Positions 10,253 to 40,973 of a DNA stretch of 49,846 nt are shown one piece after another. The stretch covers positions 11,579 through 61,424 of the forward strand of contig MQRK01229401.1 in assembly GCA_001938485.1 (NCBI GenBank), in the 5' to 3' direction. A program made the translations under genes and the position numbers. The stretch comes from Girardia tigrina. Its lineage: Eukaryota. Under the pieces are notes generated by a model. That model searched no databases, was not told the DNA's origin, and worked only from the letters and a program-made list of their open reading frames with translations. Position 1 is the first letter of the stretch. Each line of letters starts with the position of its first letter.

Positions 10253-11498
10253 TCTTGGGACAGACATATTTGGAAATCGTGAAACTTTTAATTTATCGGA
10301 AATTCTGAGTGAAATTTTGTCAAACCTTTTAATTGAAATTTTGTTGAGCATTTAATTTAAATTTTGTCCAAAATTTGATTGTATTTTTTGTCGAACGTTG
10401 AGAGATATTTATTGCTGAAAGTGAGTTGTTTAAGATTTTTATCGAATATCAATTTGCTTTTTGAAAGTCGTCAAACAGTAATTTTTTGTAATAATTTTGA
10501 ACGTTTGTTGCTGATTATTTGAAATTTTGTCAAACATTGATTTATTTAAAAAATGAATAGAACTAGTATTTTGAATTTTTATTACGAATATTACTGAATC
10601 AGATAACAAAATTAATATTTGACGAGTGAAAATTTAATCTCTAAAATAAAATGGGCCCAGCACGAACACAAATTTCTCGAATTTCAAATCCGACACTGCC
10701 ACTCTATTGGTACCACTGTCCGGTCTTCGGAGCAACCGGGAGATCAGTGAGACATTATGTTTCAATTATTCAACCTTAACTATGAAATATAAATATATTG
10801 TGGCATTAAAGAAAATCATAGACCTTTATTACCTTTCATCAATTACATTTATTAATAAATTTATATGATTAATTAAATAAAAAACAATATTTATAGATAG
10901 TTATAAATATAAAATTTTTAAAAATGAATAATTTTTATAAAATTATTGAATGTTTGATGATAAAACTTGTGAACGGATGAAAGAAACAATTTACAATTGT
11001 CTGCATGTCTGTATAAATGTTGAATAGAAGGACGAATATTTGAGAATCATTATTATTTTTATGATTAATCTAACCATTTTTAATATTTAAAAATACAACA
11101 AGAAGTTATACACCTATCTTGTTTAATTTATTATTAATTGGTTAAAATTTTTAATTTCTCTATATTTTGACAAAATTTCGGAAATGAATTATCATCTTCA
11201 TTATTGTTAAATAATGTTTTCTACTTAATTTGTATTTTTAATAATTTTTTAAAAATATTATCATAAGCTGGAAATAAAATACATTATTTTTTATTACCAC
11301 TCTGGGGATAACGTTAATTATAGCAAAAGAATACTAAGTCTTTCAGTATAATAAGTCTCTTTACAACCAGGAAAATATTGTAATTATAAAACTCTTTAAA
11401 AGTATTATTATTTTACCATAAATTTCAATCAATACGATCAGGTCATTAAAATATTATTTTTAAATATTTATTTACAAGAAATGTGACAATAAAATTAC

Positions 11499-11808
11499 CT
11501 TTAAATGCTTTGACAGACCAGTTATTATGAAGAATTGGTAAGGTTGCATTCATTTGCTTACAGGAATCATATGCTATTTCCCAAGTCACAAAAACCGAAG
11601 AGTGATTTTGGTAATAAATTCTATAGAAACAAGAATCTTTTTTTGTTTTATTAAAATCCGCCTTTGGTTTTCTTTCGAAGCCTGAAATGACCATGGTTTA
11701 TTAGGTAAAGTTAACAATAGAACTTTACAAACATTTCTTATAAAAGTTCCCATTGTAAATCATGTAAATAATTATTATAAAAGAAATGCGCAACAATGAT
11801 TTAGACAT
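11499..11808 (-). CDS. 5' exons of a C-type lectin-domain gene (exons 11808-11733, 11681-11499); downstream exons to ~10930 look degenerate
   Basis: MSKSLLRISFIIIIYMIYNGNFYKK-CFERKPKADFNKTKKDSCFYRIYYQNHSSVFVTWEIAYDSCKQMNATLPILHN: hydrophobic N-terminus, CTLD W-x-x-A-x-x-x-C...L motif, 51-bp phase-1 GT-AG intron. Confidence 0.65.
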
Positions 11809-13981: not shown

Positions 13982-14631
13982 TGGGAGAATTAGAATAACT
14001 CTTAGATTTTCGAAATAAAAAAAGAATCACAACGATAAAATATTTTAAATTAATTAACAATTAAGATTATTAAAATAGATTTTTAAATCATATAGTAAAA
14101 TAATTTAAAAGATAATAAAAGTTATAGTATAACATTTTAAATTAATGAAAATATAAGTTGTTGAAATTTAATTTTTTAATTATAACGGAAAAGATACGGT
14201 TATATAAAGTTATGAATTGTGAATTATAGATTATAAATTAGAAATTATGAATTATAAATTATAACTTATGAATTATAAATTGTGAATTATAATTTATAAC
14301 TTGTAAATTATTTTGGAAATAATAAGAAACAGAACGAAATTAAAAATCGAATATAAACAATTATTTAAAAATGTAAATTGTGAATTAATTTAGAAATAAA
14401 AGAAAATTAACCAACCGAAATTAAAATTTTAATTTAAAGTAATGATTTAAAATCGTAGAAAATTATAATACATAAATATTGAAATTATGTTTTTATTATA
14501 TTTTGTTTAAATCTGGTTCGTATAATAATTAGGAAGATTGTTCCTCAAAATTTGTTTAAGAAATTTGAATTGTTATATTAATAAATTGTTTTGTTATCTA
14601 ATGAATTTTAATTTTGATATCGAACCTAACA
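13982..14631 (+). repeat. 5' LTR (TG...CA) with internal 7-bp TTATGAA/TTGTGAA tandem repeats
   Basis: Aligns with 26168 onward; ends GAACCTAACA directly before the TGG of the PBS. Confidence 0.8.
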
Positions 14632-15690
14632 TGGTGACTATGGCCATTTGTTCAGATCATTTGATCTCGAGGCTATTAATAGATAGATATAGTAAAGAAG
14701 ACAATATCGAAACTTTTATATCGGCGTGTGCACGATATTTTCAATTGTCCAAAATACCGAATAATGTCCAGGAAATAGTGATATTTGGACTTCTGTCAGA
14801 TGATCTTATACCGATGTACGAAGCTAGATTACGGGAAACCAATCAGAAGAAAAAATCATCAATGGAGGACTTAATCGAGGCTTAGAATATCGAAAGAACG
14901 GAAGAATCGGCGGAAGAATTCTTCACAAAAGCAAATATGTTTGCTTAAAACTAGCAAAATGGACAGAATTAGGTTTATAAACATGTCTCCTCCTCCATGG
15001 AGCCAAAAATAGAGATGTTGTAAAAGAGATTAAACTCAGAGAAATAAACGAACTACCGGACAAACAGACCTTGAGCAAATAGGTAGACGAGGTACAGGAA
15101 ACAGAAAAAAACAATACATACAATACGACCAACTTATAGAGATATGTTAAAAAAAGGAGCGATGACAAGAAGCAAAACCAAAAGAGAAACTTTTGAAGGA
15201 CAACCTTCGGTACAGAACAACATCACATGTTAAAACTGTCAGGAAGGGGATACAAAACTAGTGAATGTAAAGGATAGAAAAAAATCACATGTTATGCGTG
15301 CAGAGAACAAGGTCATATCCGACGCTAATGCAAAAACATAAGATGTGGAAGATGCATTAATTCATGTCATAGAACAGAAGAATATAACACAAATCTAAAT
15401 AAAAGATTTCAAATAAGAACAGAATATCAAAAAGGAACACAGAGAGGAAAAAGACGATATTTAGTTGAACAAATGAGAATCAGACGGAAATCAAAGGAGA
15501 AATCAAGAAAACAGTAGACGATATCCAGATTAACAAAGGAGAAATACAAGAGACGAGTGATCGGATGAATTCCGAAGAGGATTCGAAAGAGGCAGACAGA
15601 TAGCGATGATGGAGAAAGAAGAGATTGATGAACAACAAAAAAACGATTCAGGCCAAGTCGACGAGGAACCGATCTTGGCGTTGGAGTAAA
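14632..15690 (+). pseudogene. gag remnant with up to three CCHC zinc knuckles
   Basis: IDRYSKEDNIETFISACARYFQL...; ITCYACREQGHIRR*CKNIRCGRCINSCHRTEE at ~15285-15385. Confidence 0.75.
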
Positions 15691-15715
15691 TTTTCTTGAA
15701 TACGAACCAGACTAT

Positions 15716-15760
<45 letters not shown>

Positions 15761-16199
15761 GTAATAATAATAATAATATAAATAAAATAAATGATAAATT
15801 TGATAATAATATAGATTGTAAAAGTATTAAAAATAAACCAGAAAATCAGAGTGAACCAAAATTGTATCAGAATCTGGAAACGAATCAAGAAGTTATAAAA
15901 GTCATGAAAAAAGAAATGGTTAACATAGGTGAATTATTGATAATTAATAACAATGAGAATGTCCCAATCATTTACAATAAATTACAAGTATAGTATAGAA
16001 ACCATTAACAGCCAATTCCAAAATTGAATGAACAATTTATGTAGTCTGGATATTGAAATAGAATATAGGTGTATTAAAGTGAGAAATTAGTTGTAATTTC
16101 TTTTTCCATTAAATCTACTGAATAATCTATATAAAGAGATGAGTAATTTTTATTGGCCTCCCATTTTTTTCAATGGTATTGATTCGTAGGCTCTTTAGA

Positions 16200-16810
16200 A
16201 GGTCCACCCCAACTAAAAATCACTAGCAGCTCCCGATAGGCTTCCTACGAGGTTGTCAGCTTTCCACTTACAATGTCTCTTCGGACTCCCAGTAAAAAAC
16301 GACCAACCATGTTCGGATGTTCCTTGATTTAGCATTCCTTTGGCCGTTCCTGTGGACTTTGAACAGCCAGCGAAAGGACAGTTGAAATTTTCTTTTCAGA
16401 TAAATCCTTTAAACGGAAATTTAACACTTCTATGGAGATCATTTCCGAGAGATTGGTTGAAACATTCGTATCGACAGTCCGTACCTGAATACAGCTTGTA
16501 ATTGTTGAATTGTCTTTCTTCTTCCTGGTATTGCCGATCAATTTTACCCCACCACACAAATCGCCATCACAGCAGTCACCTGCTTTTCTTTGATGCTTCT
16601 GTTAGATTTGAATGGATTGATTTGCTTATTCCGTGTGATCTGTCTTGTAGTGTCTGGTTAGCCACCCATTGATGCATACTGACATGCATAAGGTTTTTGC
16701 TTGTCCGGTGCCGCTTCATGATCAATTTTAATATGTCTATTGCGTTCCTTTTGTTCTACAATGGCCTTCTTGCAAAGCTCGTAGGGACACTGGGATTGAA
16801 AATTGTGATC
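16200..16810 (-). pseudogene. C2H2 zinc-finger coding remnant, probably the C-terminal end of a LINE ORF in inverted orientation
   Basis: CPYELCKKAIVEQKERNRHIKIDH (C-x4-C-x12-H-x4-H), PYACQ.../GWLTRHYKTDH, FNCPFAGCSKSTGTAKGMLNQGTSEH. Confidence 0.6.
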
Positions 16811-16880
16811 TGATGTTACTCTCCTCGTCGCGGTTGGTCCTGGTAACTAGTCGATGCAAATCGGTTAGGCTAATGAGTAA
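16807..16880 (+). ncRNA. HDV-like self-cleaving ribozyme remnant at the LINE 5' end
   Basis: P2 TTACTC/GAGTAA, L3-like TCCTCGT, GG-TAAC junction, P4 hairpin CTAGTCGAT-GCAA-ATCGGTTAG, J4/2 GCTAA; P1 and P3 not cleanly formed. Confidence 0.5.
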
Positions 16881-18062
16881 TCTGCCAAATAGGGTCAGCA
16901 CCCCTATGCGCAGTATATTTACCGCTTCTACTTCCCTAACTAGGAATCTGGCAGGAATCGCAGTCAATAAGCTCCCGAAGCGTGAACCACTTGAGAACGG
17001 TTCCAGTGTCAAAATGTAGCTTGGAAATTGGAACGTCAGAGGATTAACGGATGAGAAACTCTTTAATCTGATCGTGATTCTGGAAAAAATACATCTGGGG
17101 ATTTGTATTTTGAAAGAAACCTACTATGGCTGAAATGCTGTGCAGGAAATTGGAGATTGGGTGATTCTGCACAGCGGGAACGCCTAGGAAGATAGGAAAA
17201 TACGAGGTGTTGCATTAATGATCAGAAAGCGGATAATCATAACATCGAGACAATGACGAAAAGTGATCGTATACTAGTATGTCGGATTCCAGAAAGACAT
17301 ACAACAATCATCGCTGTCTGTAGTCCTACGGATTGTGGATACTCTCCAGATGAGAAATCCTCATTTTACTCGGATCTCAGACGCCCAATAGCCGACGAGA
17401 AAGGCTCGGCTAAATCTACTCATCATGAACTCTTCATTGGAGTGATTTTAATTGTCGTGTTAAACGCACAGATATGAACACAACACATGTTGGTCCCTAC
17501 TATGGGGAGACAACTTATCAGAAAACGGATCAATAATTATAAAGATTGCTGCTTCTTGCTGTTTAAGGATAGAGAACACGTTCTACAAGCATTCCAAGGA
17601 TCAGAAGACAACCTGGATGCATCCGGGCAAAAAAAGAAAGAGATGCTTGATTTGTTTTTGACTGACCAACATCGATCGAGACTGATATCCGACGTCAAGA
17701 GTTATCCTAAACTTGATTGCGCATCTGACCATGACCTTTCAATGCTAATTGCATGGCTCAGAAAGAGAAATAGGCCCAGAAAGAAAACTTGCAAGAAACG
17801 GAAAGAAGAGAAGATACATAACATAATCTTATTAGTGTCCCATAATCGAAGAATCGCTAAAAGCTACAAGCCAAAATATGGAACCCTGCTGGACTGGTTT
17901 TACAGATGGTATTATAGCAGCGGCTTGTAGTTGTGGAAAATCAAGCAGGCAAATTCTACTTAGCCAGAGATGGTTGCAAGACCATCAGAATGAACTAATG
18001 AAAATATTACTGGAAAATTGGATAAAAGAAAGAATTTTGTCAACAACAGGAATGATACAAAT
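16813..18062 (+). mobile_element. RTE-like non-LTR retrotransposon 5' part (APE endonuclease), degenerate, RT absent
   Basis: LGNWNVRGL, LKET, HSG...RGVALMI, VCSPTD, G(V/D)..NCRV, LDLFL, CASDHDL motifs across frames. Confidence 0.8.
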
Positions 18063-18295
18063 GATTTTTTATTATTCCTTGTGACTTATCTCCTTTGTGA
18101 TTTATTGATTACCTTGTCAACTTTTACCTCCTTCCATTAACCGTTTGGTTGTATAATTATAGTTTAATCATTTATATTTTCTTTTTATTTATTGTATTAA
18201 TAACAAGATTACGTAGACGAGCTAACGAAGTTCTTCGACCTCATTAGCTCGCTACCTTAATAATTATTATTGAATCGATCGATAATAATTATTAT

Positions 18296-18334
<39 letters not shown>

Positions 18335-18822
18335 TAATATCTGGCTACTACAATAGGAAAGGAGAACTAAACATGTGGACATGTTATCGAGACGAAATTG
18401 CGAAACGTGTACTCAATGTGAAATGGAACACGATGATGCTAAAATGGTAAAAATAAGACCAGATTATTAGTGGTGATTACAAGAAGTGAAGCTAAAGCAG
18501 GTAGAAAAGAATGGGTAAGCAAGGAGAAACGGAGTGAGTTGATCATACATACACATAGATTGTCTTGCTGGAGCGGAAAACGCATAAGAATATTTAAAGG
18601 ATAAGTTCGACATGGAGGAGGAAATGAAAATGATAGAAGAGGTAGTAGGAACATGCACAGATTGCCAACAGAAAAAAACGATTACCACAAAGACAAAGGA
18701 AGAAAAAGTAAAATAAACAGCATTAGAAGGATTGGAAAAGGTTTATATAGACATCTATGGACCATGGAACGAGACGATAAGAAGAAAAAGATACATCCTA
18801 AGAATAATAGGCCACTACAGTA
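18335..18822 (+). pseudogene. Gypsy pol remnant: RNase H end and integrase N-terminal half
   Basis: HVDMLSR, CTDCQQKK, LEKVYIDIYGPW, IIGHYS; continues in frame as KYVSL after the hAT. Confidence 0.75.
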
Positions 18823-19186
18823 CAGTGGCGTCCCTAGAGCATTGAAGCCCGGGGCGGAAATATTCGTGAGGCCCTATATATATTTATGTATATATATACT
18901 CATATCATTGGAAAGAATCAATAACAAATAAGATCTATCAATTATCTCTAAGAATATTTTTATTTATTTATTCTTTAATTCAAAAACTACAAAACAATAA
19001 TATAACATGGAGAAAGGTGTTAGAAGCATGATTCATACATACAAACATGCATAAATATGTTCAGGTCTGTATGCTAATATACATACTAGAACATTAGTTT
19101 ACATAGATATCAACGCACATTCTATCCCACACATGTATATCCGTAGGCAAGAAATTAAAAGAATCAACTAATCAAAGAATAACAAA

Positions 19187-22100
19187 TTAAAACTGTTTTT
19201 TACGAGTTTTCACTTCAGAAAATAATTTTATTGTCTCATCAAAGTTAATATTTCGTGCTGTTGTGTTTTCAATTGATATAATTGCTAAGCTATTAAGTCT
19301 TGTTTGATTCATTGTCGAACGAAGATAACTTTTAATTAGCTTTAACTTTGAAAAGCTTGTTTTGCAAAAAGAAATTGAAACGCACACTGTCAAAAAAATC
19401 TTTAAAGCTAAATTTAAGTTTGGAACCGATTCCTGTAAATCTATTTCTATTATAAAAGTTAGCATTTTCAGTGCAGACCATTTGTTAGCTTCCTCTATTT
19501 CAACTTTTCCTGCTGGAAGATGACTTTTAATTTCAGGTAAAATTTCATTTTCTTGTATTTCATCAAAAGTTTCCGTGAGACTTGAAATCAGCATTGGAAG
19601 TTCTTCAATCTCTGTTCCAATAAGATGCGATAATTGAACGGTTGCAAACTTTACATATAAATTTTGCATTGACTCTATCCTTTTTTTAAGATCTTGATAA
19701 AATTATCAAGTGACTGAAACATCGACCTTCTCAATTCTTGCTTTAATGTTAAAGCTGCATCTTTTAACTCTTCTCCATGTATCGCCTTTTTACGACTTTT
19801 TCGGTTAACAAATTAAAACTGTTTTTACGAGTTTTCACTTCAGAAAATGAAAAGTAAGAGGATGAAATCCCAAAATCGATTCTCTTACCTCTACCTTGAC
19901 TCTCTTCCAAAAAAAAGTTATCAGGCATCTAATTTTTGTACAGTTTTGTCAAAACTAATTCCTTCGGTTTGTAAGTATTTTTGAGTATGATTGATTTCCT
20001 CAAGAGTACTACTCCAGAAATGAAGATAAGCAAGAAAACTGGAAAAATAAATGTTTTTCATTAAAATTTCAGCTGTACCCCTCGTATCTAGATTTTCTGA
20101 TGTATCGCATAATTTTTCTAAAGCCTGTATCAACTTTCGAAAATATTTCACCACAGGTTTCACAGCATTATATTGTTCGCTCCAACTGGTTCCTGGTAAC
20201 CTTTTGATAGTTATCCCGACTATTTCTAACAATATATCCCACCTATGAGTTGATGAAGAAAAAAGTTGTAAATGCTTTCAATTGTTCCAAAAAACGTTAC
20301 ACAATATGGAATGCTTCCAAATGCATGAATCCTGCTCAAGTTAAGCGAATGATTAGAACATGGTACAAATAAAACTTTCTTATTAATTTGCTGGATTCTG
20401 GCCTGTACTCCAGAGTGAATACCTAATATAACCGAAACATTGTCATAACCTTGACTTCGACATAGGTTTATATCCAAACCCTCTTCATTAATGACATTTA
20501 CAATTTGTTGTGTGATATCAACAGCTTTCTTTCCAGTAAGAGGATGAAATCCCAAAAACGATTCTCTTACCTCTACCTTTTTGTTTTCAATATGAACATA
20601 TCTAATAATCTCTCATCATTGGTCTTGGTGAGATGCATCAGGTGTTGAATCAAACATTTTCCCATAATATTTTGCTTTTTTACATCTTCAATAATCTTCT
20701 GCTTCACCGCATCTCCCAATATAGAAATAAAATCATTTTGAATTTTAGGGGAATGATGCGAAATCATGTTTCCTGCTTTACTATTCTGGATCCTTGCCAA
20801 ATGTTCTTTTAAGACAGGATCGTAGTGTGAAATTATTTCAACTAACTCTAAAAAATTGCCTTTATTCTCAGAAAATTCATGTTCTCTGTGACCACGGAAA
20901 GCTAAATTTTGTTTAGCTAGAAACATGGTGACATCTAATAAGCGATGTAAAATGTCATTCCATTTTTTAGTTTCTAGTTCCCGATTTTTTTGATGTACAG
21001 CATCAATAGTTTTATTAAGATTTAATCTTAATTCTAACGTTTTCCATGTCTCAAGATTGTTTAAGTCAATCTCAGAAATTTCATGATGTGATATCTTAAG
21101 GTTTAATTTCCACTAGTTAGAAAATCCAGTAACAAAACTTGATTCATTATTACTTTTCTTGTCACAAACTGCAAAAAGCCGACAACAGAAGCAAAATAAA
21201 CATTTCTTGGATAGAGAATAAACCATTCATTTTCTGAGAACTTTTTTACCATTTGAAAGATTTTTGTAGAACCAATGCTTAGTAAACTGTCGAGTTTGAC
21301 CCTTTATTTGTTTTCCTACTCTTTGAACCACTCCAAATGGACCATCTTTGTTTTTTATTTTTTTTTATTCGAAAAAAATATTTTAAAAAAATTTATAAAT
21401 TTCTATAGTTTTTGTTTTTCTAGTCTTCAAAAGTTATAATAAAAGGACATCAAAACAAATTATTATCAAACTGCATAAACAATAAAAAATTTTAAAAAAT
21501 ATTTACAAAACGTTTTTGAAAATACTCAGAAAAAAAATTAAAGTATGCTAGTAAAAAGATTACCATTAAAAGCTCGGATAAATGTAATGGCTGAGAAAGA
21601 GGAATGTCAACATCGATATCATCAGCTCGAAGTGATGTATTCAGGATATCTTTCATAACTGTGTTAATGAGAGAAATGTTTGAAATGATTTTGTTATTTT
21701 CTCTTATTATTATGCATACTTCTACATGCAAATGTGGAATATTGTGCTGTTGATGAAATTCTATTTGGAATCAATTTAAATGTTTTGTTCTGATTTTAAA
21801 GAAAAATTTTAATCAACAGACAACAATTTATCAATATGCACGATTCTGGAATGTATTTGAAATGTTTTTACATTCAAATTAACTTAAATTAAATGTATTA
21901 ACTTAATGTATTGATATTTTAGGTACGTTTGTGAATAAACTGGAGAAATCAAATGAGACCATTTGATAGTGAAATTGGATAATCTGATAATGGAATTATC
22001 CAATTTCCCACATCAAAATTTAAAAATTGAATATCATTTTCATTGGATAGACTGATTCCATCTGCTTGTAGCATTTTTCTACCTAATTTTTCATTTTGCA

Positions 22101-22374
22101 AAATTACGTTTGGCGTATCACATTGTTGGGCTAACGTTTCAGTGAGTTTTATGCCTTGTTTATCTGTATTATTATTATCTTTTCTCTGTTCTTGAAAAGA
22201 TGCAACCGCTGGATCCAAATAAATCTGTTCACTTGATGGACCAACAAAGATAGATTCTGGTTTGGGAACTTACTTAACAAATTTCAGCAGTGATCCTGTC
22301 AGTGCCTCGGTTTCATCTCTCCTACATTTCAAAATTTTTCTTTTTTGTGCTCCACTTGGATGATGCCTCTTCAT
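19187..22374 (-). pseudogene. hAT transposase pseudogene
   Basis: MKRHHPSGAQKRK start; LAKQNLAFRGH...GNFLEL (DUF4371-like); CRSQGYDN; VPCSNHSLNL; SFSKLKLIKSYLRSTMNQTRLNSLAIISIE dimerisation domain; multiple stops and frameshifts. Confidence 0.9.
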
Positions 22375-23067
22375 GATGCGGTATCTAAAATTAAAATTAA
22401 AAACTTATTATAATGTTCCGCTGAACGTGTTAAATCAAATAAATAATTCATCTTTTCTTCGTCCGCTAAACCATCGTATACCACAAATTCTCCTTTTGTC
22501 AAAAAAGCGGCAATATGGCTTCTAATTATAAAATCAAAATTATAAATCAACTCGTACTTTTCCTGCCTTAATTAATATAAATTTCCTGTCTAGAAATAAA
22601 TATAAACAGAATTGAACAACTAAAAAAGTATATTTGTTTCAACACAAAGTTTGCCTCACAAAATCCAAAAGTTGCTAAAATTTTCGTTTCCGAGTACATT
22701 CAAATAACATATTTTAAAATTAAGTGTCTTTTTATTCATCACAAAATTTACTTTATACTTTTCAATTGAGGATCTATTTATTTTGATAGTGAAATTGAAT
22801 GATTTTTTGTGAAGTTAATTTTACTATTTATAATATACTATTTTGGCCGGTCATTTTTAAAAATTAGTCCTGTTTAAGATGGTCACAAATACTAAATTTT
22901 ATTTATTTTTATCAAAATTAACTGTTAACTCCAAATCTAAAACAATTCAAAATAAGAAGTATCTTTTACTAATAATTTATATTTACTATATTATAAAAAT
23001 ATTAAAATTACTCTAAAAAAGTGTTTGTGATTTTCAATTCAAGTATTACAATGATATTTATTAAATA

Positions 23068-23466
23068 CTAGCGCGCTCGGCCCGCTTCGCGGCCCTCTCT
23101 TGCCGGGGGTTCAATTTTTTTTATATTATAAAAGCCCAAGTCACTCACTGCCTGCCTCACTGCCTCACTAATGCTATAAGGTAAATTTTTGAAATAATAA
23201 CAGAATTTTTCATAATAAATTGATATTTTTCCACATTAAATACAGAATTTTTCATAATAAATTGATNNNNNNNNNNNNNNNNNNNNNNNNNNNNNNNNNN
23301 NNNNNNNNNNNNNNNNNNNNNNNNNNNNNNNNNNNNNNNNNNNNNNNNNNAAATTGATATTTTTTCACATTTATTTTTCAACAAATAATACTATTATTAC
23401 ATCAACAATTATTACGTCAGCGTTAGTGAAGCAGGCAGTGAGTGACTTGGGCTTTTATAATATAGA
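23068..23466 (-). mobile_element. Non-autonomous Helitron with an internal inverted copy of its 5' end
   Basis: 5' TCTATATTATAAAAG, 3' GC hairpin GGCCGCGAAGCGGGCC then CTAG; inserted in A|T with no TSD; empty site CGATAA|TATTTAAT present in copy B at ~41399-41412. Confidence 0.9.
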
Positions 23467-23844
23467 TTATCGTTAAATGTTATTATAAAAAAAGTAATAA
23501 TTTTTTATATAAAAGTAGTGTTGAAAATTAAACAAATGAGAGGAAAGCAAAATGATTATTAACTTTTGTAAGGTATGACTGCAATTACAAGGACATTAAA
23601 AAACTTTTATATTTTTTATTAATTTATTCCACAAGATTCTCATTGAAAGTCTGTGAGTGTCCTTTTAATATATGTTAAAATTATTCATAGAGATCTTTTC
23701 TAACATTAGAAGTTACAGTTCAAGTTACGACTGTTGGCGATTGATGACAAACACAAAGTAGAGGGAAATTCCACGGTGAACTGCATTTCTCTATAATATT
23801 GTTTTTCAATATAAATTTAGTATTTTCGTTATTCCTAACAATCA

Positions 23845-24786
23845 TTATTTCAATTTATAAATCATAATATATGCTGTTTTACTTGGTGTTTCCAAAACAG
23901 CTTTTTTATCCGTCAAACTACATTTTTCGTCATCCATCTCGATCCAACGGCTGTATTTTGTGAAACATTGTGATATATAATGACCGGAGGTTGTCCTCAA
24001 TCCTCGATGATGAACGACTGCAACAACATCGAATTGACGAAATTGTTCTGTACTCGTCTCCACAGAAAGACTTTCTTCTATGTGATGAGCTGAACTGTTC
24101 TTTTCTATCTTCATGAGATTAATATTCGTTTCGAATCTCATCAATGTACAAATTAAATATTTCGGAATTCGAATTAGTTTGAAATATTTTGTAGCATATG
24201 TTGTTCGTTTACAATGTTCACAATTAAAACAATCAATTGATTCTTTTTCAAACACGACTTTCGAATCCAATTGTATAAATGTCGTCAATTCTTCATGTTC
24301 CTGAACTGTTTCACTGTTTGCTTGGTGACATTCTTCACAAATATATCGGTTGTCGTATGAGAATTTGTATAATAATCTGATGGGATTATTCTTGCCCGAG
24401 AACGGTTTATAACGGTCGAATTCTTCTTCCAAACGAGATAATAATCCTACAAGGAATTCTTGTGCATCTTGCATTTGATATTGAGAAAAACTTGGAGAAT
24501 AATATTTGATATCGGTAATTGCTTTTCTTAAATTCCATGAAGGTTTGTTGTCTTTCAAAGTATCTAATAATTCGTTCATCAAATAACATGCTGGAACTTC
24601 TTCTTTCTCTTTGAAAATATTTCTCATGACCCTCACTTTGATGATTAATTTTGATTCAAGTGTAACAATCAAAGCTTGCATAACAGAATTCATGTAACAA
24701 CTAACGGAACTGTTGATCAACCCTATAGAAGATTTGTAAGGGGTCATATCAAATTTAGATTCTAAATCATCCCATATTAAATTCAT
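23845..24786 (-). CDS. Ubiquitin-specific protease (peptidase C19), minimal intronless catalytic domain, 313 aa, copy A
   Basis: Cys box GLINSSVSCYMNSVMQAL (C30), QDAQEFL, CxxC...CxxC zinc ribbon, His box VVHHRGLRTTSGHYIS (H269), WIEMDD (D285/286). Confidence 0.93.
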   Translation of the reverse strand: MNLIWDDLESKFDMTPYKSSIGLINSSVSCYMNSVMQALIVTLESKLIIKVRVMRNIFKEKEEVPACYLMNELLDTLKDNKPSWNLRKAITDIKYYSPSFSQYQMQDAQEFLVGLLSRLEEEFDRYKPFSGKNNPIRLLYKFSYDNRYICEECHQANSETVQEHEELTTFIQLDSKVVFEKESIDCFNCEHCKRTTYATKYFKLIRIPKYLICTLMRFETNINLMKIEKNSSAHHIEESLSVETSTEQFRQFDVVAVVHHRGLRTTSGHYISQCFTKYSRWIEMDDEKCSLTDKKAVLETPSKTAYIMIYKLK

Positions 24787-25695
24787 TGTTTATTATTAAT
24801 TGCTTTTTGTTTTATAATATTTTCTTTTTTCATTTATAATACGGTAAAAAATTATTTATAAATTTTATTTTCTAATGAAATAATTGGATAAAATGTTTTA
24901 TTTGATTATAAAAATCATTGTTTTTAAAGTAAATATTTCTTTATGAACTCAATTTTGAGTTTTGAGTTTTTGTGTTCTTCATAAATATGTTTATTGTTGT
25001 TAATAAAATAAAAGTTTTTATCGGAAAACAACCACAAACCCAACGAACGTAATTCAAAATAATGTGAATTTAAAAGTTATTTCATGATCATTTATGCGAG
25101 AGAAAATTCTGAATTTGGTTATATGCTGTTTGGATTGGTGATTCTCAATTCAGATGGGATTGAGATGTTATTGAATAATTATTTAAATCTAATGAGATTA
25201 ATTTAATGAGCTTAATGTTTAAATATTAATTAATTAAAAGTTTTCTAATTATAAATTTTATTAATATTGTTTAGTAAAACGATTTTAACTTTATGAGGAA
25301 TATTTGGTGTGTTGATGTTTTTGTGTAATGTTTGCGTGTTTAAAATGTGTTGTGTCGATTTGGGATTGTGCCTCTCCTAATCAGATTTATTCTAATCAGA
25401 TTTATTCTAACACAAATTTACAAACAAAGTTAAGTACTTTAAATAAAATTTTTTTTGTATATATATATATACTGATAAATGTTATAAATATTTATTTTTA
25501 CCAATATGCTACAATATGATATATTTCAAAGTGTATAAATATATGATCCCTGTGTGGATTCGACAATAATTAATAAATTACCTATTTTAAAATTTTTGTA
25601 TATTAGCATTTTATCTTTTTGGAGCCCCCCTTCATCAGAGGCCTGGGGCGGTCCGCCCCAACCGCAACCCCCCCCCCCNCCTCAGTACGCCACTG

Positions 25696-26090
25696 CTTCA
25701 GTAAATACGTGAGCTTGATGGCAATTAGAAGACTAAAAGGGGAACAATTGTATAAATGATCTTACAGAAATGAATATTAAAATTCGGAGCACCAAAGGAG
25801 ATACATTTGGACTGTGGTAAGAGTTTTTAATCAAAAAGGTCAAAGAGATATTAGAAGCAAGAGGTGTTAAGTTGATTTTCTCCAGCCTATATCATCATAA
25901 CTCTAACGGAATGATTCAGAGACAATTCAGAACAATTTATTCAGGTTTAAGTTTTAAAAAAAGAAATAACACGAATTGGGCTGATTTATTACCGGAAGTG
26001 GAATTTGCTATTAATGCAACTAAATAAAATAGGCAACATCCCAGCGGAAGTTATATTTTGCAAGAAAATATATCGACAACAGTGGTAAGA
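25696..26090 (+). pseudogene. Gypsy integrase core remnant (second half)
   Basis: KYVSLMAI, KFGAPKEIHLDCGKSF, FSSLYHHNSNGMIQRQFRTI, WADLLPEVEFAINAT. Confidence 0.8.
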
Positions 26091-26167
26091 AGACAGTAAA
26101 GTAAATCGAGAAGGTATAATACTAAAAATAAAAGTAAAAAGATAAAAATCTCAAAACAAAGGGGAAA

Positions 26168-26480
26168 TGTGAGGATCGGAATAACTCTTAGATTTTCGAA
26201 TTAAAAAAGAATCACAACGATAAAATATTTTAAATTAATTAATAATTAAGATTATTAAAATAGATTTTAAAATCATATAGTAAAATAATTTACAAGATAA
26301 TAGAAATTATAGTTAGTATAACATCTAAAATTAATTATAATATAAATGGTAAAAATTATTTTTTTAATTATAAAAGAAAATGATACGGTTGAATAAAATT
26401 ATGAATTGTAAACTAAAAATTATAAATTGTGAATTATCAATTTCAAATTGCGAATTATAAATTGTCAATTGTGACAATTT
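26168..26480 (+). repeat. 3' LTR of the gypsy element, truncated
   Basis: TGTGAGGATCGGAATAACTCTTAGATTTTCG matches 13982 onward; similarity lost after ~26480. Confidence 0.8.
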
Positions 26481-29100: not shown

Positions 29101-29167
29101 TTACCGCTGACGAGCCTTTCTAACCGAAACAGGATTACCCCCATAATGAATGGGTGCCTGTGGAAGG
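29101..29167 (+). ncRNA. Degenerate hammerhead-ribozyme-like motif
   Basis: CTGACGA (29107) and GAAA (29126) cores; stem III ACAGG/CCTGT plus ACCC/GGGT; stem II poor and cleavage triplet GUG. Confidence 0.35.
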
Positions 29168-29702
29168 AGGAAAATTTGCCAAAACGGAATTATAATAATA
29201 GTGATAATAAAAATGACAATAATAAATAATAAATAAAATAATAATAATAATGTGAATAATTAAATATTAATAATATTTTACTAATAAATGATAATAATAG
29301 TAAAAATAAAATATGATAATAGTAAATTAATAATAATAATAATAAATCAATAATGATACTTGTGAGGAATATGTTTGAATGGTGTTTATTGTGTGTTGTT
29401 TGGTATGTTGTTTTAGGATTGTGTTTCTCCCACCCAGATGTAAGATTGATATTTTAAATATTTTAAAATGTCGGGTTGTTTAATCAAGTATTAAAATTTA
29501 AATAATCACTTTAAAATTAAACTAATATTTCATAAATAATATTTTAATAATATTTTCTAAAAATAAATAAAAATTATTTCAAATTTAAAGTATAAATTAT
29601 TTTTGTAATAATTAAATTGCAATTTAAATTTGTTTGAATAATAAGACGTCAAAGAATATTATGAAAGATTATCAATCAAGAACGATGACAGTAGGGGGAA
29701 AA

Positions 29703-30423
29703 TGGGTATTCGGCCCCACCCCCCTGGGGGAGGCCGTTGCTATGGCAACGGTTACCATAGCAACGGTCGCGATCACCTTAACAACGCTTCTGATTGGTTT
29801 CTTGGTTCCCTAGCAACGGTTGCGATCACCTTATGAATGCTTCTGATTGGTTTCCGGTTCCTTAGACTAGGCAGCAACGGTTTCGGTTCCCAGGGTAACG
29901 GCAACCAAGGACGTTTTTCATTAGCAACGGATACAGTGTTCCAAGGCGGTTCCCGTATCCATAGCAACCGTGACCCCATCACTAAGGACCTTAGAAAAAA
30001 GTGCTAATCAGTCACTGCACAATGCTTAGATCGGTTCTAAAAGCGAAAATACCGAAAAACCGGTATCGAAAATTTTTAACGATATTACATTCCCTAATTA
30101 TGATTAAGTTCACATTTGTATAGATTTCATTAGACAGACTTCTTATAATCCCGAACCAGATTTCTTCTCGAACTGTTCTTTTAATGAAACAGTTAGCTTT
30201 AATAGTAAATTGAGGATCGATATTTTCAATGAATTCGAAATACGAATGGAAATATTTTTGTTTAAAGAAAATCTTATCTAATTTAATGTATTCATTTGTA
30301 AATGTAATTTTCTTTATTAAAAATTTCAATGATAGAATAAAATTAATTGTATATTTTTTATTCAATTTTCGTTTTACCATACTTTTGGTGTTGTAACTTC
30401 AACTTTTGATATTGGACCTAACA
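29703..30423 (+). mobile_element. 3' LTR of a second, related gypsy-type element
   Basis: Purine tract AGTAGGGGGAAAA then TG at 29703; ends TTTTGATATTGGACCTAACA, matching TTTTGATATCGAACCTAACA at the end of the 14631 LTR. Confidence 0.65.
29736..29968. promoter_or_regulatory. Cluster of RFX X-box motifs with two CCAAT (Y) boxes in a ~53-bp tandem duplication
   Basis: GTTGCTATGGCAAC 29736, GTTACCATAGCAAC 29751, GTTCCCTAGCAAC 29805, GTTCCCAGGGTAAC 29886, GTATCCATAGCAAC 29955; CTGATTGG at ~29790 and ~29843. Confidence 0.7.
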
Positions 30424-30924
30424 ATCGTTACGTGATCCAACTGTCTTTGGTTAAGAAACATTAAAAATTTAATTTTGTTGATCATTTTATTCTTATTCAA
30501 ATATTTAAGTCATCAACAACCAATGTTATGTATTCGCAAATTCAAAATCGTTTTACAAAATGTATATGGTATAAAGATTAAAAATAGAAAAAATCAGAAA
30601 ACATAAAATTTCATAAAAAGAAGAAATCAAAAAATTTAAACTAGCTCGAGGTTATTTGCGTTTCATGTTCTCATTAATGAATATTGAAATTAAACCAAAG
30701 AAAATCTTTAAAAAATAATTAAAAAATTGAAATAAATTACAAATTTTGAATTATCTGAGTGAATCAAGCATAAATGTTCAAATATTTCGTAAATTTGAGA
30801 ATTCAAGAAAACCAAAACACTGTGTTTTTCAGATAGGTATTTCTGTGAAAAACCAATAATAATGATTAAATTAATTATAAAATTAATAAATATCTTAATA
30901 TGACATTATAATAAATTAGAATTA

Positions 30925-31175: not shown

Positions 31176-34100
31176 GATCGAGTGCTTCGGAATCAAATTT
31201 GATCTGATTTTATTAATAGTTCTTTTGTTTCAAAGTATATATTTATTAATGTCAAATAAACACATAAAAATGTTTAGTTTATTTCATGAAAAAATCCATA
31301 TTATTTAAATTTTGCACATTTCGTTATATAATTCAAGCGAAGTTAATGTTTTAATTCTTTTCACAAATTTTTTTTTGTTTTTTCTCAGGGTCACCACAAA
31401 TACCATTCCTTGTTTTCTGCATACTGACGCAATTTTTATGTTTGCAATATAATTTATTTTGCAATATAATAATCGAGTTAACGAGTCCTATTAAATTCTC
31501 AGTTTTGGATGGTGATTATTTTTAATCAGAAAAACTAGCTGAACATAAGATAATAATTATTTGACGATTTTCCCTGATTTAACTGTAGTGACCTATAACA
31601 TATAAAATACATTAAATTTTTATATTGTCTACGTAGAATGAGACATTAATATTTGTTTTTCTGAGTTATTGAAATGTGTGTTTTAATATTCATTATTTGT
31701 GTTATGTTCAAATTGAATTGATTTTAATAAATTTAGAATAAATATATATTTTCCGTCGTTCGAAGTATAGTCTATTTTGTTGGACGAAGATAGGATGCAA
31801 AAGCCCCGTTATTATTATGGATCCCTAGTCACCAGCACATTTTTAGAAATTTAATGAGAAAAATCATTCAAACGATTAATCAGTATTCGTAAAGTGAAAG
31901 ACCACTTTACTTGCGTGCAACTGCATATTTGTCAAGTGTTTAGTTATTTAATAGATTTAGACGCAGATTTATTTTTGTAATTCTTATTTTATTATTCAGT
32001 GATTTCATTAAAAAAATCACAGGATTAAATGTATTTTAATAATGTATTCGAAAGTTTTCTGAAGACATTAATTTGTCAATTTTGTTCTGTAAAGTGAATT
32101 TTTCATGAAATTAAGTGTTGTTGTATAACGTTTTTCAAAAGCATTTATTTATAACTTGTGGTAGACCTATTTTATTAAAGTTATAACATTTACCTGAGTC
32201 TTCTTCACAGAAGGTAATTATAATAAAAGGTTTTGAAAACCACATAAAAATATGAATAAGATTATATTTGAATATTTGTGACGTGATAACAGTGGAAGTA
32301 AGTGTTTCGGTTGCATTTAGGAGTCTGGACTACATACATTTGAACTGAGTTATTTAATCAGTGTTGCTGTCAATAAAATTTATAAAAAATATAATAAAAT
32401 ATACTTTATGAATATCAGATCGGTCTCAAAGTTCTCAGACCACAGTTTGACTTTATTATAAGAAGATGGCAAAAATAAAATAACGAATGTTGATTCTTTG
32501 TTGCACTAATATCATTTATTACTTCATTTTTATTTGTATTGACATTTTATTTACTTTGAGCAAGGACTGTTAGTTATGGCTGAATGTTTTTTGTACACAT
32601 GATTTGTTTAAATCATAGCTGTTTCTAAAATTAAAATATGGTAATTAAAATATATTTAATTAGCCTTTTTTTAATGAGAGAGAACGTGTGAGAGCCCTCA
32701 TAAGGGTTATTAACCATGATTGTGGATGAGGAAAACTCGAGATTTGAGCAATAATGCTGAATTTGCAAAGAGCAGAGTGCCGAAAACCTCATTGTAGTAG
32801 GGTTACGTGGCCAATTTTGTTCGAAGAGTTGAAAGCCTAAAATCCCGAGACTCGAGAGGTACCGCCGAATCTGTGCAGAGTGTAGGGAGGCTTCGAAACC
32901 GAGTGGTGAGAACCCTCACCTAAGGTGAATTGTCTTAGCCACCTGATCAAAGTTCTCGATAGACCTTTTAGACCTCATTGATTGTGATGTTTCGGCAAGT
33001 TCTTTGACTTAAATTGTTGTTTTGATTGTTGAGCGTGTGAATGATATGAATGACACGGATCCTTAACTCACGAAATCTTCCCCTCTTAATTTGAATTATG
33101 TAACTGATTTTCATCATGATATGTTAATTTTTGAGAAAATCCAATTTTCTTTGGTGTTGTCGGAGGGGAAGAAGGTATTCGCGCCCTTTCAAGTTCAAAA
33201 AGAAAAGAGTCAAGCCTTTCATACACTCATTCTCCAAACATCAGTTTACTGATCTAGAACAGAAGTTATCATCCTCCAAACATTGTTTGATAGATCTAGA
33301 CGATCCACCACAAATATGTTCACTCTACCACAGCCCACGGCCGCGCCAAGGACCATGAGTTCTTTTGAAGGAAGTCTTTCCTATTATAATGCCTCTCAAT
33401 ATTTCAATGATTACTATAACCAAAATATTTATCCTCACAAAATTTTTACTTAAATTTGTTTTATTACTCCTTCAAATTGTATTTTTATTTTCCATATATT
33501 TCTTGTTTTATTTTAAATACAAAAATAAACCCAAGAAAATAATTTCTACATCAATTTTATTTAATTAACACTTATTTCTCTCTAACATCAGATTTTGTTT
33601 CCAAAATCACAAAAAAACTGTTATCGAAATTCAAAATAGTTTTTACTTTGAAAAAAAATAATTTTCTCAATTTTGCTCTTTTGATGATCATCAACAATTT
33701 GAATTGTTTAGATGGATTTTCGGTATTTTTATTCTCCGGTTTGATTTATGCTTGAACTATTCTCAATATTTTCTAAAATTATTTTTTCAGGAAAAACTGA
33801 TTTTTTCTTTAAAAATGGTAACTTTTCGTCATTTAATTAAAATTGTGATTAAATATTTTGTTTTTTTGTTTAATGATTTAAATTATTTTTAAATGAAAAT
33901 GTCACTATAATCATTACTTGAATGATATTGTTTTATTTTTTTATTTTTATTTTTTTTGCTAGACAGTCTATTGTAAAGAACTTTGTGGTTTATCTGTGTA
34001 TTTATTTATTTTATTTTATTTTATTTATTTATTTATTCCGTCTAAAATATAAAAATATATAATACCATTTTATCACATTTTCCAGTCAAACACCAAATTT

Positions 34101-34259
34101 TTTATAATTCTATAAAATAAGAAATCCATTTAAATTATTAAACTTATATATAAATTAGTTGAACAAAGATAGAAATTAGGGAATATTTGAAGAAATTATA
34201 TATATATATNNNNNNNNNNNNNNNNNNNNNNNNNNNNNNNNNNNNNNNNNNNNNNNNNN

Positions 34260-34806: not shown

Positions 34807-34955
34807 TTATTTTCCGTAACCGGAATACCACGATTGTTCGTTAAAGGGGTTTCTCTTCTTTCCATAACCAGAAAACCAGGCTTGGTCCGCCCATCTTTGG
34901 GTATTTTTATCTGAGAATCTTTTTACGGCGAGGTACAACTTCCTATCATTGAAAT
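34807..34955 (-). CDS. Neuropeptide precursor, exon 2 (two amidated W-[FY]-S-G-Y peptides)
   Basis: Acceptor TTTTTTTAG at 34956; (D)FNDRKLYLAVKR-FSDKNTQRWADQAWFSGY-G-KKR-NPFNEQSWYSGY-G-K*; repeated peptide with Gly amide donors and basic cleavage sites. Confidence 0.85.
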
Positions 34956-36359
34956 CTAAAAAAATAATTACATTTTTGGTGAAAAATATTTTAATAAATA
35001 GATTCTGAATAGATTCAGAATATAATTTAATTTGTATATTTTTATGCATAAATTACTTCATTTGAAATCTTTCATAAAACAATTATAACATCACCTACAC
35101 GTATACTAAAAAGGTTTAGAAATTAGTACTTGATCTAATAGATTCTTTGACTTCTCTTTAAAATTCGTCTGAAATGTTTGTTTCTTAATAAGAAGATTGC
35201 ATAATTATTACTCGGAATATCAAAGATTTCCTATACAACACACAAAAAGCATTTATATTGGAAACCCACAAACGGGTCTCTCCTGTTTTGTCAAACGGTT
35301 ATAAAGCAGTTCATTTAGGAGGCTTTAATTTGTTGGATATCTGATATTCCAGAATCTGTCGTTTAAACCTAACAACAACAGATAGGAAATGATTTTACTT
35401 ATGGATTTTAATTCCACTGAATTTAGAAGCATGTTAGGTTACTCAAGGTAAAGATAAAAATTTTATTCAAAACCAAAAATGAAGGACAAAAAAACATTTA
35501 TGGTTGTTTTCACAAGTATTACGAAAATATGATCATGTCTTCCTAATTTTGTCATTTCAGGAAATTATGAAATGCTTTTCAAATGTTTTTTGGTTTTAAA
35601 AGCCTTGCATACCAAGTCCCTTACTCAATCAATAAGTGTTTGGTAATAAATATTTTAAGAATAAATATAAGCTCGGCTCACTAAGCCATCTAAAGACCAA
35701 TGAATGAAAAATTAATGAAACCATTCAAAATGTTAACGACAAAGCATAAATAGCTTATAATATTTGGTCTGATCAATCTTTAATCGTATGAAAGTATAAA
35801 AGGTTAGTTGGTTAATATATTGGCTACAAGTTTTCCATTTATGAAGACTGTTTTAAAGTTATAAACTTTGTGAACAAGAGCTCATAGAATAAAGCAGAAT
35901 ATGAATAAGAATTAAATATTCATGTTTTTTAGAGTATTAAGATTCTGATTTTTAAAACTATAAGTTGTACATCAATAATTAATCAATAAAAATCAGATAA
36001 TGTACATACAATGGGAGCGGTTTTAATTGCATAATCCTGAAAATTCATATATAATATCATTTTCCTGGTCAATGTGTTGTAAAAATGATTAAGTTGATGT
36101 GTCTACTTGCAGTATACATTAATCAAGCAACTCAATTATAAAGGGTGCGAAATAACATCATAATTCTACTTTTAGTTTTTTTCTAAGAATTCCAAATATT
36201 GACATTATCATGGACTTCGTTGTATCTCAGCAGAGGGTTTTTTGGTATTCATTATTGACAATTCTTTTCCTGAAATTTTTCTGATCTTAGGGTGATTGAT
36301 TCATCACCAGTTGCAACAAATGATGAGGATTTAATAAACGAAACAACACAGGTTTTCTG

Positions 36360-36959
36360 TCATAAATGGATTTGAAAGTTAAATAAGCAACAGAATCGTG
36401 AAAAGACGATTAGAGAAGATGTCGATATTGATTTTACACCCGCGGTTGTTGAATTATTATCATTTTTAGCAGATGGTGGAAGAATTTGGTTTGTGCTCAA
36501 AAGAATCAAATTAAGAATAGTTCTCAATATCTCACAAACTAATTGACAATGCATACGTTCCATTTTAGTTCCGCAAACGTAATAAATTTCGACCGATTTA
36601 TCAACTCGTATGTCCATATAACGCATCACATCTAACACTGATTTAAAAAGAGCAATTGATCGAGTTATTTCGTCAAGATGTTTTTTATTTGCTTTTAATT
36701 CAGCAATATAACAATTATAACATTTTGGAATTAATTCAACATTATTTTTGGAATTTTTATTCAATTCCGAAAATTGATCAATACGCTCCGCCGATTTCAA
36801 ACGACTGATTTCGTCTGTTAAAAGAATTTCATCGATATTCAATGATTTATGTTCCGCGTATTTGATCATTTCGACAAATACATATGCATATGACGTTAAA
36901 TTAGTTTCTCCGCGTAAGTTTGCCAAATTCCTTTCAAAAGGTTGCCAAGATTTTGCCAT
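36360..36959 (-). CDS. 199-aa chimeric ORF: TRAPPC5/Trs31-like N-terminal ~45 aa fused to unrelated sequence; may be a non-functional chimera
   Basis: FERNLANLRGETNLTSYAYVFVEMIKYAEHKSLNIDEI resembles the TRAPPC5 N-terminus (LERALARPRTEVSLSAFALLFSELVQ, from memory); similarity stops at an acceptor-like TTCTTTTAACAG. Confidence 0.45.
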   Translation of the reverse strand: MAKSWQPFERNLANLRGETNLTSYAYVFVEMIKYAEHKSLNIDEILLTDEISRLKSAERIDQFSELNKNSKNNVELIPKCYNCYIAELKANKKHLDEITRSIALFKSVLDVMRYMDIRVDKSVEIYYVCGTKMERMHCQLVCEILRTILNLILLSTNQILPPSAKNDNNSTTAGVKSISTSSLIVFSRFCCLFNFQIHL

Positions 36960-37346
36960 TTAAAATTTGATTATAATTAAATGGAATAATTCAAAATCAA
37001 AAGGCAATTTAAACTTTTTCCAAACTTTATTTATCTTAAATTAATCGATTTAATTGTAATTTGTAATTATTTTCAAAAATTGTTTTATGATACAGTTTTG
37101 TTACAAAAATAATATTCACACAGAAAACATTACACACACGCATGTACGAATCAGAATTAACAAAAACATACATATCACACTTTATTAACAATCTCACCCC
37201 TCACACACCAAAAACACATTCAATGCAAATATTGATGTGAAATCAATTCAATTGTTTTTAAAAAAAAGATATTTTCCACTTTTTACAAATGATTCAAGTG
37301 CCACAAATTAAAAATTGATTGATTAACAAAGTGCCATTGATAATAA

Positions 37347-37381
<35 letters not shown>

Positions 37382-37559
37382 TTTAATTTATTTGTTTAAA
37401 TTACTTTTAATTATTTTATTTAATTGATATTTTAATTTAATTGCTTTTTTTACATTTATTTTTAACTGAATACTGTATTTAATTTTTTAATTTCTTTTAC
37501 TTATTTCATTTAATTTTACTTAATTTTATTTATCTAATATTTTAATTTAAATTGGACTC

Positions 37560-38380
37560 AAGTAAGGGTAATCACAACGCGAACAGACTTGACTGCTATA
37601 CAGCGTACGCAGAAAGTTACTTTGGTTACCCACACATCCCAAACACAAGTGGAAATTGCTGCAAATGTAGGGTTCTCCCAATTTGCAGTGCCCTGTCTGC
37701 TTAAACAACATCAACAGACTGGGAGCATTGCAATTCAGAAGAAAGGTCAGTGTGGAAGAAAGAAGCTCATTGGAGAGCAAATTTCAAATCGCATCATCAT
37801 ACACAGCAAGATGGATCAGAAAATGACATCAGTGGAAATGAAAGAAAGAATTGGCGAGCCTGCATCAAATGTGTCAGCACATCGAATCAGAGAGCATTTA
37901 TAACATGCAGGAAATTGTTAGCAATAAAACTTTTTCATCTAGACTGTCTTCTCTCAATTGTAAAACATGGTGTGGATTATGAGATGATCTGTTGTGTGAC
38001 TTCTTGGATATCCACAGACCAATAATTTGTATTTATGGAAGAATCAACATTTTAAATTCGACTTTTTAAGAGTTTTGGGCGACCAATTTTACCCTATGTT
38101 CCTAGAACACAATTTTTCCAGAATTTCACGAGCAAAATTCTGATGAACTTGAGCATCTCATCTGGACACTTTATTCCCTAGATATCAACATTATTATGCA
38201 GTTATTATCGATTTTAAAAGTTTAAGTAAAACGTTAATTTCCAATGCCATCTTATCTTAAAGGATGTTTTAACTAAAAAAGGGTTAAAATTCATTTTGAA
38301 ATAATTCTCAATTTGTATAGGTCAATATTTCAGAAAATGGAGGCTGTAATTGTCGCAAAAGGTAAACCTACACTAAATTT
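37560..38380 (+). mobile_element. Degenerate Tc1-like transposase remnant
   Basis: HTH with TQVEIAANVGFSQ...TGS...CGRKK; C-terminal MEAVIVAKGKPT at ~38337-38375. Confidence 0.75.
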
Positions 38381-40805: not shown

Positions 40806-40973
40806 TGATTCTTAGGAATAACGAAAATACTAAATTTATATTGAAAAACAATATTATAGAGAAATGCAGTTCACCGTGCAATTTCCCTCTACTTTGTGTT
40901 TGTCATCAATCACCAACAGTCGTAACTTGAACTGTAACTTCTAATGTTAGAAAAAATCTCTATGAATAATTTT

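Follow-up and report, generated by a model that had tools for sequence, protein, structure and literature searches.

An intronless ubiquitin-specific protease gene inside a decayed hAT transposon of Girardia tigrina: a probable local duplicate made by repair

Introduction

How did an open gene for a ubiquitin-specific protease (USP) come to lie inside a dead DNA transposon? The question is raised by contig MQRK01229401.1 of Girardia tigrina, from which we analysed 49,846 nucleotides (positions 11,579 to 61,424 of the forward strand; hereafter the window), a stretch of AT-rich eukaryotic DNA with several assembly gaps. An initial annotation made from the letters alone had described a USP gene on a 2.9-kb cassette within a hAT element, a second copy in a host intron and a third fragment, and had proposed that the cassette moves on its own or belongs to a retrogene family spread by repair. 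We favor, with moderate confidence, the explanation that DNA repair made the copy inside the dead hAT (copy 1) by duplicating, locally, a divergent USP gene without introns, namely the copy in the intron (copy 2), and that copy 1 is thus a single-copy Pack-TIR, the name referring to terminal inverted repeats (TIRs).

Results

A divergent, minimal USP in two near-identical copies

Copy 1 of the gene is a single uninterrupted open reading frame (ORF) on the minus strand (23845-24786) that encodes 313 aa and covers the whole protease domain. Copy 2 (39864-40805, plus strand) also encodes 313 aa, and the two are 95.8% identical in amino acid and 97.6% identical in nucleotide sequence. Both match the Pfam family UCH from end to end (profile positions 1-254 of 254; E = 1.2e-35 and 2.4e-34, with 123.7 and 119.5 bits against a curated cut-off of 23.9), and as one ORF spans the entire domain, the coding region is intronless. 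ORF, Pfam and self-BLASTN analyses thereby bear out the annotated open, intronless gene of 313 aa in a 2.9-kb segment inside a hAT, as well as its counterpart of about 96% identity at 39864, antisense in a host intron.

The residues N25 (the oxyanion Asn), C30, H269 and D286 are invariant in 11 of 11 aligned rows, and alignment with USP4 and USP12 shows that the catalytic C30, H269 and D286 are kept together with four finger cysteines. A structure model (pLDDT 77.9, pTM 0.80) has USP35, USP46 and USP1 as its best PDB matches (TM 0.73-0.76). By sequence and by fold the window protein is a USP, of peptidase family C19, and both suggest that it may be enzymatically active. It shares with the catalytic domains of USP4, USP12, USP46, USP2 and USP35 the Cys and His boxes, the finger cysteines and the fold (TM about 0.74); it differs from them in its low identity (17-24% in the structure matches listed), in lacking accessory domains and in showing no orthology to any named USP. 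A six-frame profile scan of the window gave three USP matches and no further significant one, and thus no intron-bearing parent USP within the window.

Relatives of the protein are distant. An exhaustive search (E up to 0.001) returned 4054 hits, and the best of those with a single domain were 25-32% identical to it; the three top-scoring hits were discarded as nearest kin because their scores were due to multiple USP domains. A word-index search gave one hit among 589 candidates, with 31% identity over 40%, and an alignment-based search gave 31 among 4561, two of which, both unnamed, fall in the clade nearest to the window USP. In a tree of 85 rows (quick search), made up of the window protein and of those 84 hits, out of 151, whose alignment covered most of the domain, the window USP sits on a long branch and has nine unnamed minimal USPs as its sister group (SH-aLRT 90), and a quick tree of 50 rows again groups it with unnamed minimal USPs. 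A profile of ten minimal USPs, chosen by similarity to the window USP and built without it, ranks it as the top non-member (158 against 125 bits; 181 scored). Two members of this clade come from contigs of 2.1 and 2.5 kb, compatible with intronless genes or with transcripts. Neither a USP carried by a hAT nor the minimal-USP clade turned up in our literature searches.

A bacterial origin was considered and rejected: prokaryotic genomes gave seven loci at 23-31% identity, and none of the five placed in the tree joins the window gene. Among the bacterial sequences, four USP-like ORFs of 530-1600 aa (L002, L004, L005 and L007), all from chlamydial genome bins, are 23-25% identical to it. A viral origin is likewise unsupported, as viral USPs show 10-22% and cellular ones 17-24% identity among the fold matches listed; neither hallmark genes of large DNA viruses or Polintons nor a viral kinship of the USP was found, in searches that did not extend to the viral contig collection. 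Mammalian USP17/DUB genes are also intronless, near-minimal and duplicating, and they form head-to-tail arrays, whereas the window copies are inverted and dispersed and the trees show no special kinship.

A gene-sized insert between intact hAT ends

Copy 1 lies in a hAT DNA transposon that is complete but decayed (18823-25695, minus strand). The element has perfect 9-bp terminal repeats (CAGTGGCGT ends), an 8-bp target duplication, CT(A/T)CAGTA, at 18815-18822 and 25696-25703 (7 of 8 positions matching), and Pfam matches to Dimer_Tnp_hAT (E = 4.7e-8) and DUF4371 (E = 4e-10). Its transposase, which the initial annotation rightly called full of stops, is a pseudogene (19187-22374, minus strand) with 5 stops in 786 codons, five frame segments and internal duplications.

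Self-BLASTN against 42075-39270, in inverted orientation, places the captured segment at 22443-25386 on the minus strand, with 309 bp between it and the hAT 5' end and 68 bp between it and the transposase ATG downstream. As annotated, it stands between the 5' TIR and the ATG, upstream of a TTTTAG acceptor; more exactly, it lies between a possible splice donor and that acceptor, just upstream of the latter, and its site is probably the intron of the hAT 5' untranslated region. Its 2.9 kb include a non-autonomous Helitron-type insertion of 0.4 kb (23068-23466, minus strand; it holds an 84-N gap), recognizable by an A|TC start, a GC-rich hairpin, a CTAG|T end and a 40-nt inner inverted repeat. 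The insertion is found in copy 1 only, its site being empty in copy 2, and without it the segment measures about 2.5 kb.

Across the 5' junction, a 15-bp tandem duplication (25379-25408, minus strand) has a unit composed of hAT-side and cassette sequence. Tandem duplication of such mixed junction sequence is a pattern tied to synthesis-dependent end joining, and the duplication, as a templated-insertion signature, points to that pathway here. At the other end, copy 1 stops within a decayed ORF that copy 2 continues. The Pack-TIR reading is favored by an insert of non-hAT sequence in an element that has intact ends and a target duplication, and by the near-identical copy of this insert 13.6 kb away.

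We infer the direction of copying, the repair pathway and the order of events as follows. A break would have arisen inside the already inserted, decaying hAT, and its repair would have used the nearby copy-2 locus as template, some 2.5 kb being copied in inverted orientation. By end joining, the templated duplication would have arisen at one junction, and at the other the copied sequence would have been cut off within the decayed ORF. The small Helitron would have entered copy 1 afterwards. The hAT would be the recipient, not the vehicle.

Events of this kind have been described. According to the available part of the survey by Tan et al. (2021, PMC8277862), the parent is no more than 15 kb away in 160 of 281 animal Pack-TIRs, and most arose by transposition-independent gap filling. 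The window locus resembles its single-copy Pack-TIRs in having both TIR ends and a target duplication around a copy of nearby sequence and in a parent less than 15 kb away in cis (here 13.6 kb, across a scaffold gap); capture after insertion of the element, as in those cases, is favored here by point estimates whose intervals touch. It differs in what was captured, namely the whole open gene together with leader and 3' flank, about 2.5 kb when the nested Helitron is left out.

A longer locus in a host intron

Copy 2 belongs to a longer locus, the putative donor (39270-42400, plus strand), which contains a 197-bp tandem duplication at 40973-41366. It runs about 320 bp past the 3' end that it has in common with copy 1, within a decayed second ORF (41866-42395, plus strand; 39% GC, with stops and frameshifts). 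This ORF has no match in Pfam, PHROGs, PDB sequences or longer proteins, nor, for its second piece, in the Atlas; its H-x8-G-x4-YDGL stretch may resemble the His boxes of cysteine proteases.

The locus lies antisense in a 7.7-kb intron of a predicted host gene for a neuropeptide precursor (34807-42718, minus strand). Exon 1 (42718-42640) encodes a signal peptide and exon 2 (34955-34807) two amidated W-x-x-x-Y peptides, and a phase-1 splice gives an open frame; the gene model is a putative one, built on this splice phase. The peptide pattern fits the Wx3Yamide family known from molluscs, as far as the available parts of two reports describe it (PMC4200219, PMC5996578), and suggests that the host is a spiralian. 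Neighboring host introns had been annotated as short, which is true of the 44-nt intron of a lectin gene but not of the 7.7-kb intron that holds copy 2. What emerges is a USP gene that is minimal, free of introns and fast-evolving, and that lies in antisense within an intron of a predicted host gene.

Two further features share this intron: a Tc1-like fragment at about 37540-38350, and an intronless ORF of 199 aa (36360-36959, minus strand), sense to the host gene and with a TG-rich stretch upstream, for which Pfam, PHROGs, PDB and Atlas gave no match. We considered a non-standard genetic code for the stops at about 38.5-39.0 kb and dropped the idea, because the host exons can be read in the normal way and the frames in question gave no match.

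The third USP piece, annotated near 45332, was recovered by self-BLASTN at 45334-45559 (minus strand). It comprises the last 73 or so codons, inverted and 4.5 kb from copy 2. The two differ at 2 positions in 140 bp and then at 9 in 76 bp (p = 0.002), an unevenness that suggests either a paralog partly converted by copy 2 or a mosaic; the piece would be what is left of an older local inverted duplication, or else such a converted paralog. We also considered it as the last exon of a spliced parent, given the TTTCAG that precedes it. This was rejected, as the six-frame scan gave no USP exon upstream of it and its flanks are no more like copy 2 than shuffles are (P = 0.35 and 0.53). Copy 2 and the third piece stand on one gap-free stretch, so local duplication of the USP gene has happened at least once.

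Direction, timing and selection

A diverged relative of the outer 110 bp or so of the cassette leader lies at 29345-29460 (minus strand). In an ungapped comparison the first 33 leader bases match it at 25 of 33 positions (from 29439, minus strand), a count that none of 200 shuffled queries reached, and nhmmer recovers it with E values of 0.027 and 0.068. Past the shared 5' end of the cassette, copy 2 and this site remain alike at 15 of 20 positions, as are 0.05% of sampled window 20-mers, and copy 1 at 8 of 20. Both stretches are AT-rich, hence we regard this likeness as moderate evidence. Since copy 2 continues past the shared segment on the 3' as well as the 5' side, copy 1 would correspond to an internal part of the copy-2 locus.

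The copies differ by 2.5% in the leader, 2.4% in the coding region, 3.5% in the near 3' and 2.6% in the far 3' part. The stops in the hAT imply a decay of about 0.04 changes per site (95% confidence interval 0.013-0.094); for the cassette the figure is about 0.014 per lineage. The age order runs from the surrounding LTR-like (long terminal repeat) pair, 13.6% diverged, through hAT decay at about 4% to the copies, 2.4-3.5% apart. By these estimates the cassette probably arrived after hAT decay had begun, which supports the annotated sequence of events, although the intervals touch.

In their coding regions, copies 1 and 2 are separated by 10 silent changes and 13 that replace an amino acid (dN/dS 0.30; Fisher p = 0.005, simulation P = 0.02). 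Models in which both copies are neutral (P = 0.016) or both strongly constrained (P = 0.002) are rejected; one neutral and one constrained copy fit (P = 0.22), and so do two mildly constrained ones. The pattern of substitutions indicates purifying selection on at least one USP copy. A single neutral lineage would remain free of stops and indels with a probability of 0.18, so the open frame of copy 1 is no evidence of function there. Together with the models this implies that at least one copy was a working gene and that copy 1 need not be functional.

Does the cassette move by itself?

The alternative that survives best, which we hold to be unlikely, is that both copies are separate truncated insertions of an unrecognized USP-carrying mobile element, be it Helitron-like, Penelope-like, a large multi-ORF element or an endogenous virus. 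In its favor, such cargo is known: the available text of the HELIANO study (PMC11417382) reports UCH (PF00443) as stable cargo of the Helitron-like elements HLE2, subgroups c and d, so that the transposon-borne USP proposed in the initial annotation had a precedent. The likeness is that of a USP-family domain carried as a separate ORF in a transposon setting. Compared by element features, and not by UCH sequence, the cassette differs from HLE2 in having neither the 11-18-nt terminal inverted repeats nor the T|T insertion site, and no RepHel ORF occurs among the window ORFs scanned.

A Helitron origin finds some further support in the shared 5' boundary, which reads A|TC (ATC makes up 1.7% of trinucleotides) and weakly resembles the 5' end of the nested Helitron; 9 of 1635 ATC-starting 30-mers score as well, a post hoc comparison that includes the tested sequences. 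As a Helitron 5' terminus this boundary is weakened by the donor similarity, which continues beyond A|TC. At the 3' side, none of the 8 CTRR sites of copy 2, examined up to the host exon, combines a stable hairpin with a following T, and the only good CTRR 3' end in copy 1 is that of the nested Helitron.

A further point in favor of a mobile element is the leader relative at 29.4 kb, which lies about 250 bp from a hammerhead-like motif (29107-29165, plus strand; CTGACGA...GAAA, a stem III of 5 bp, AT-rich repeats on either side). This motif is at chance level, as 43 of 200 shuffles hold at least one, and has no Rfam match, and we dropped the Penelope link; neither copy contains a hammerhead core and the cassette has no ORF for reverse transcriptase (RT). 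Also in favor of a mobile element are the orphan intronless ORFs nearby (41866-42395, 36360-36959 and 30012-30380), which have no family match, and the long branch of the USP, which groups only with nine or ten unnamed minimal USPs. Against such a source, a motif scan of 62 hits longer than 700 aa found no transposase polyprotein and no Walker-A, Rep or RT pattern of note, and viral USPs are no closer than cellular ones. The available part of a review of the giant Burro LTR elements (PMC6431247) lists no USP.

More generally, no terminal repeats or target duplication bound the cassette, the one candidate duplication being a chance-level 6-mer; no A run of 8 or more follows the USP gene in 40806-42640; and no transposase or RT linked to the cassette was found. 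The proposal that the cassette moves on its own is therefore not supported, and the 3' ends are ragged and all copies within this one window local, an outcome that the initial annotation had itself counted against mobility. Its suggestion of a retrogene spread by repair divides in two: repair-mediated duplication fits best, but the poly(A) and target duplication of a retrogene were not found.

Other deubiquitinase or deSUMOylase genes are tied to DNA transposons. In the accessible portions of two papers, OTU, Ulp1, VTD and peptidase C19 domains occur in Ginger1, Mutator, Helentron and a Trichomonas transposase (PMC2836005, PMC9741609), with the C19 domain joined to the Trichomonas transposase (PMC2836005) and Helentrons carrying active VTD and OTU-type domains (PMC9741609). 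Those, as described there, are built-in domains of active elements, whereas the window USP sits in a dead transposon as an apparently later passenger.

Remaining features of the window

The hAT splits the integrase of an old LTR-retrotransposon-like element (13982-26474, plus strand; rve match weak, E = 0.017), whose LTR-like pair occupies 13982-14285 and 26168-26474. Inside it, at 16700-18100 (plus strand), a GC-richer decayed segment resembles the endonuclease region of a long interspersed nuclear element. The hAT transposase contains an insert of about 0.6 kb (about 21345-21965, minus strand) with similar short flanking repeats, an A-rich end and no Pfam match; a peptide in it presumably resembles a Penelope-type RT motif. 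Two pairs of direct repeats of 44-45 bp (19180-19223 with 19806-19848, and 19853-19897 with 20535-20579) mark internal rearrangements of the hAT.

Near the leader relative, a GC-rich block of short GGCAAC/TAGCAAC repeats (29690-30380) lies beside the orphan ORF of 122 aa at 30012-30380 (minus strand), and about 30480-30560 loosely resembles the cassette leader, non-significantly by nhmmer. A weak match to the histone 3' stem-loop (32224-32267, plus strand; 23.8 bits against a gathering score of 34) is probably due to chance. Counts at chance level also came from a sigma-70 promoter scan, which is inapplicable to this DNA. Further upstream in the window are exons of a C-type-lectin-like host gene (2900-3850 and 11446-11697, minus strand; Pfam E = 0.0037 for one exon), with its short intron at 3602-3645, and two mariner-type elements (4748-5961 and 8196-8615, minus strand). 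One of these has 35-bp inverted ends and a 519-N gap; the second is truncated and has a Mos1-type helix-turn-helix (Pfam E = 6e-22).

Discussion

We set out to explain how an open USP gene came to lie in a dead hAT, and repair-mediated capture from the copy-2 locus accounts best for the nesting, the junctions and the nearby donor. Several points weigh against this account. The closeness of the two copies rests on scaffolding over a 50-N gap (34210-34259), which is flanked by (TA)n runs and lies within the 13.6 kb from the putative donor, copy 2, to the hAT end. The confidence interval of hAT decay overlaps the age of the cassette at its lower edge. Junction microhomology and lost bases cannot be scored without an intact copy of the hAT. 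The Helitron-like A|TC boundary coincides with a step in GC content in copy 2, from 0.14 to 0.38. Finally, the account leaves the origin of the donor USP unexplained, and copies were counted within the window.

The first of these points opens an explanation that we consider improbable, and more so than a mobile-element source: that the closeness of the copies is an artifact of scaffolding, near-identical cassettes having joined unlinked contigs, or that the copies are divergent haplotypes of one locus. The gap with its (TA)n flanks between the copies and the 84-N gap within copy 1 are what such an error could leave. Copy 2 and the third piece, however, share a gap-free stretch, and simple alleles, which the initial annotation had allowed for as a misassembled haplotype, are excluded by unrelated flanks (hAT against neuropeptide intron), opposite orientation and private insertions. 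There is only a slight chance that the hAT captured the cassette elsewhere and moved in trans with its cargo, perhaps by local hopping, as a multicopy Pack-TIR: its terminal repeats and target duplication imply that it could once have moved, but the target duplication is already mutated (1 of 8 positions), the transposase looks older than the cassette, and multicopy Pack-TIRs are, in the part of the survey available, distal to their parents (PMC8277862).

A broader proposal, to which we give about the same low credence as to separate truncated insertions, concerns the donor. The USP, the decayed ORF and the neighboring orphan ORFs may be what remains of a large mobile element or an endogenous virus, as yet undescribed, of this invertebrate lineage, marked by the recurring leader, whose deubiquitinase, a member of the minimal-USP clade, would have been selected after the decay of the element, as a domestication within the neuropeptide gene, and would still be spreading. 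If so, one more mobile element with a deubiquitinase would be added to those known, and with it a case in which to test why transposons and viruses carry such enzymes time and again.

If instead the local, repair-made duplicate that we favor is the correct explanation, the locus would be a clean case of a whole enzyme gene duplicated by repair into a dead DNA transposon, an event of a described kind whose donor and junctions can still be read. Beyond the locus itself, the finding draws attention to minimal USPs of an invertebrate lineage that form a divergent clade without a name.

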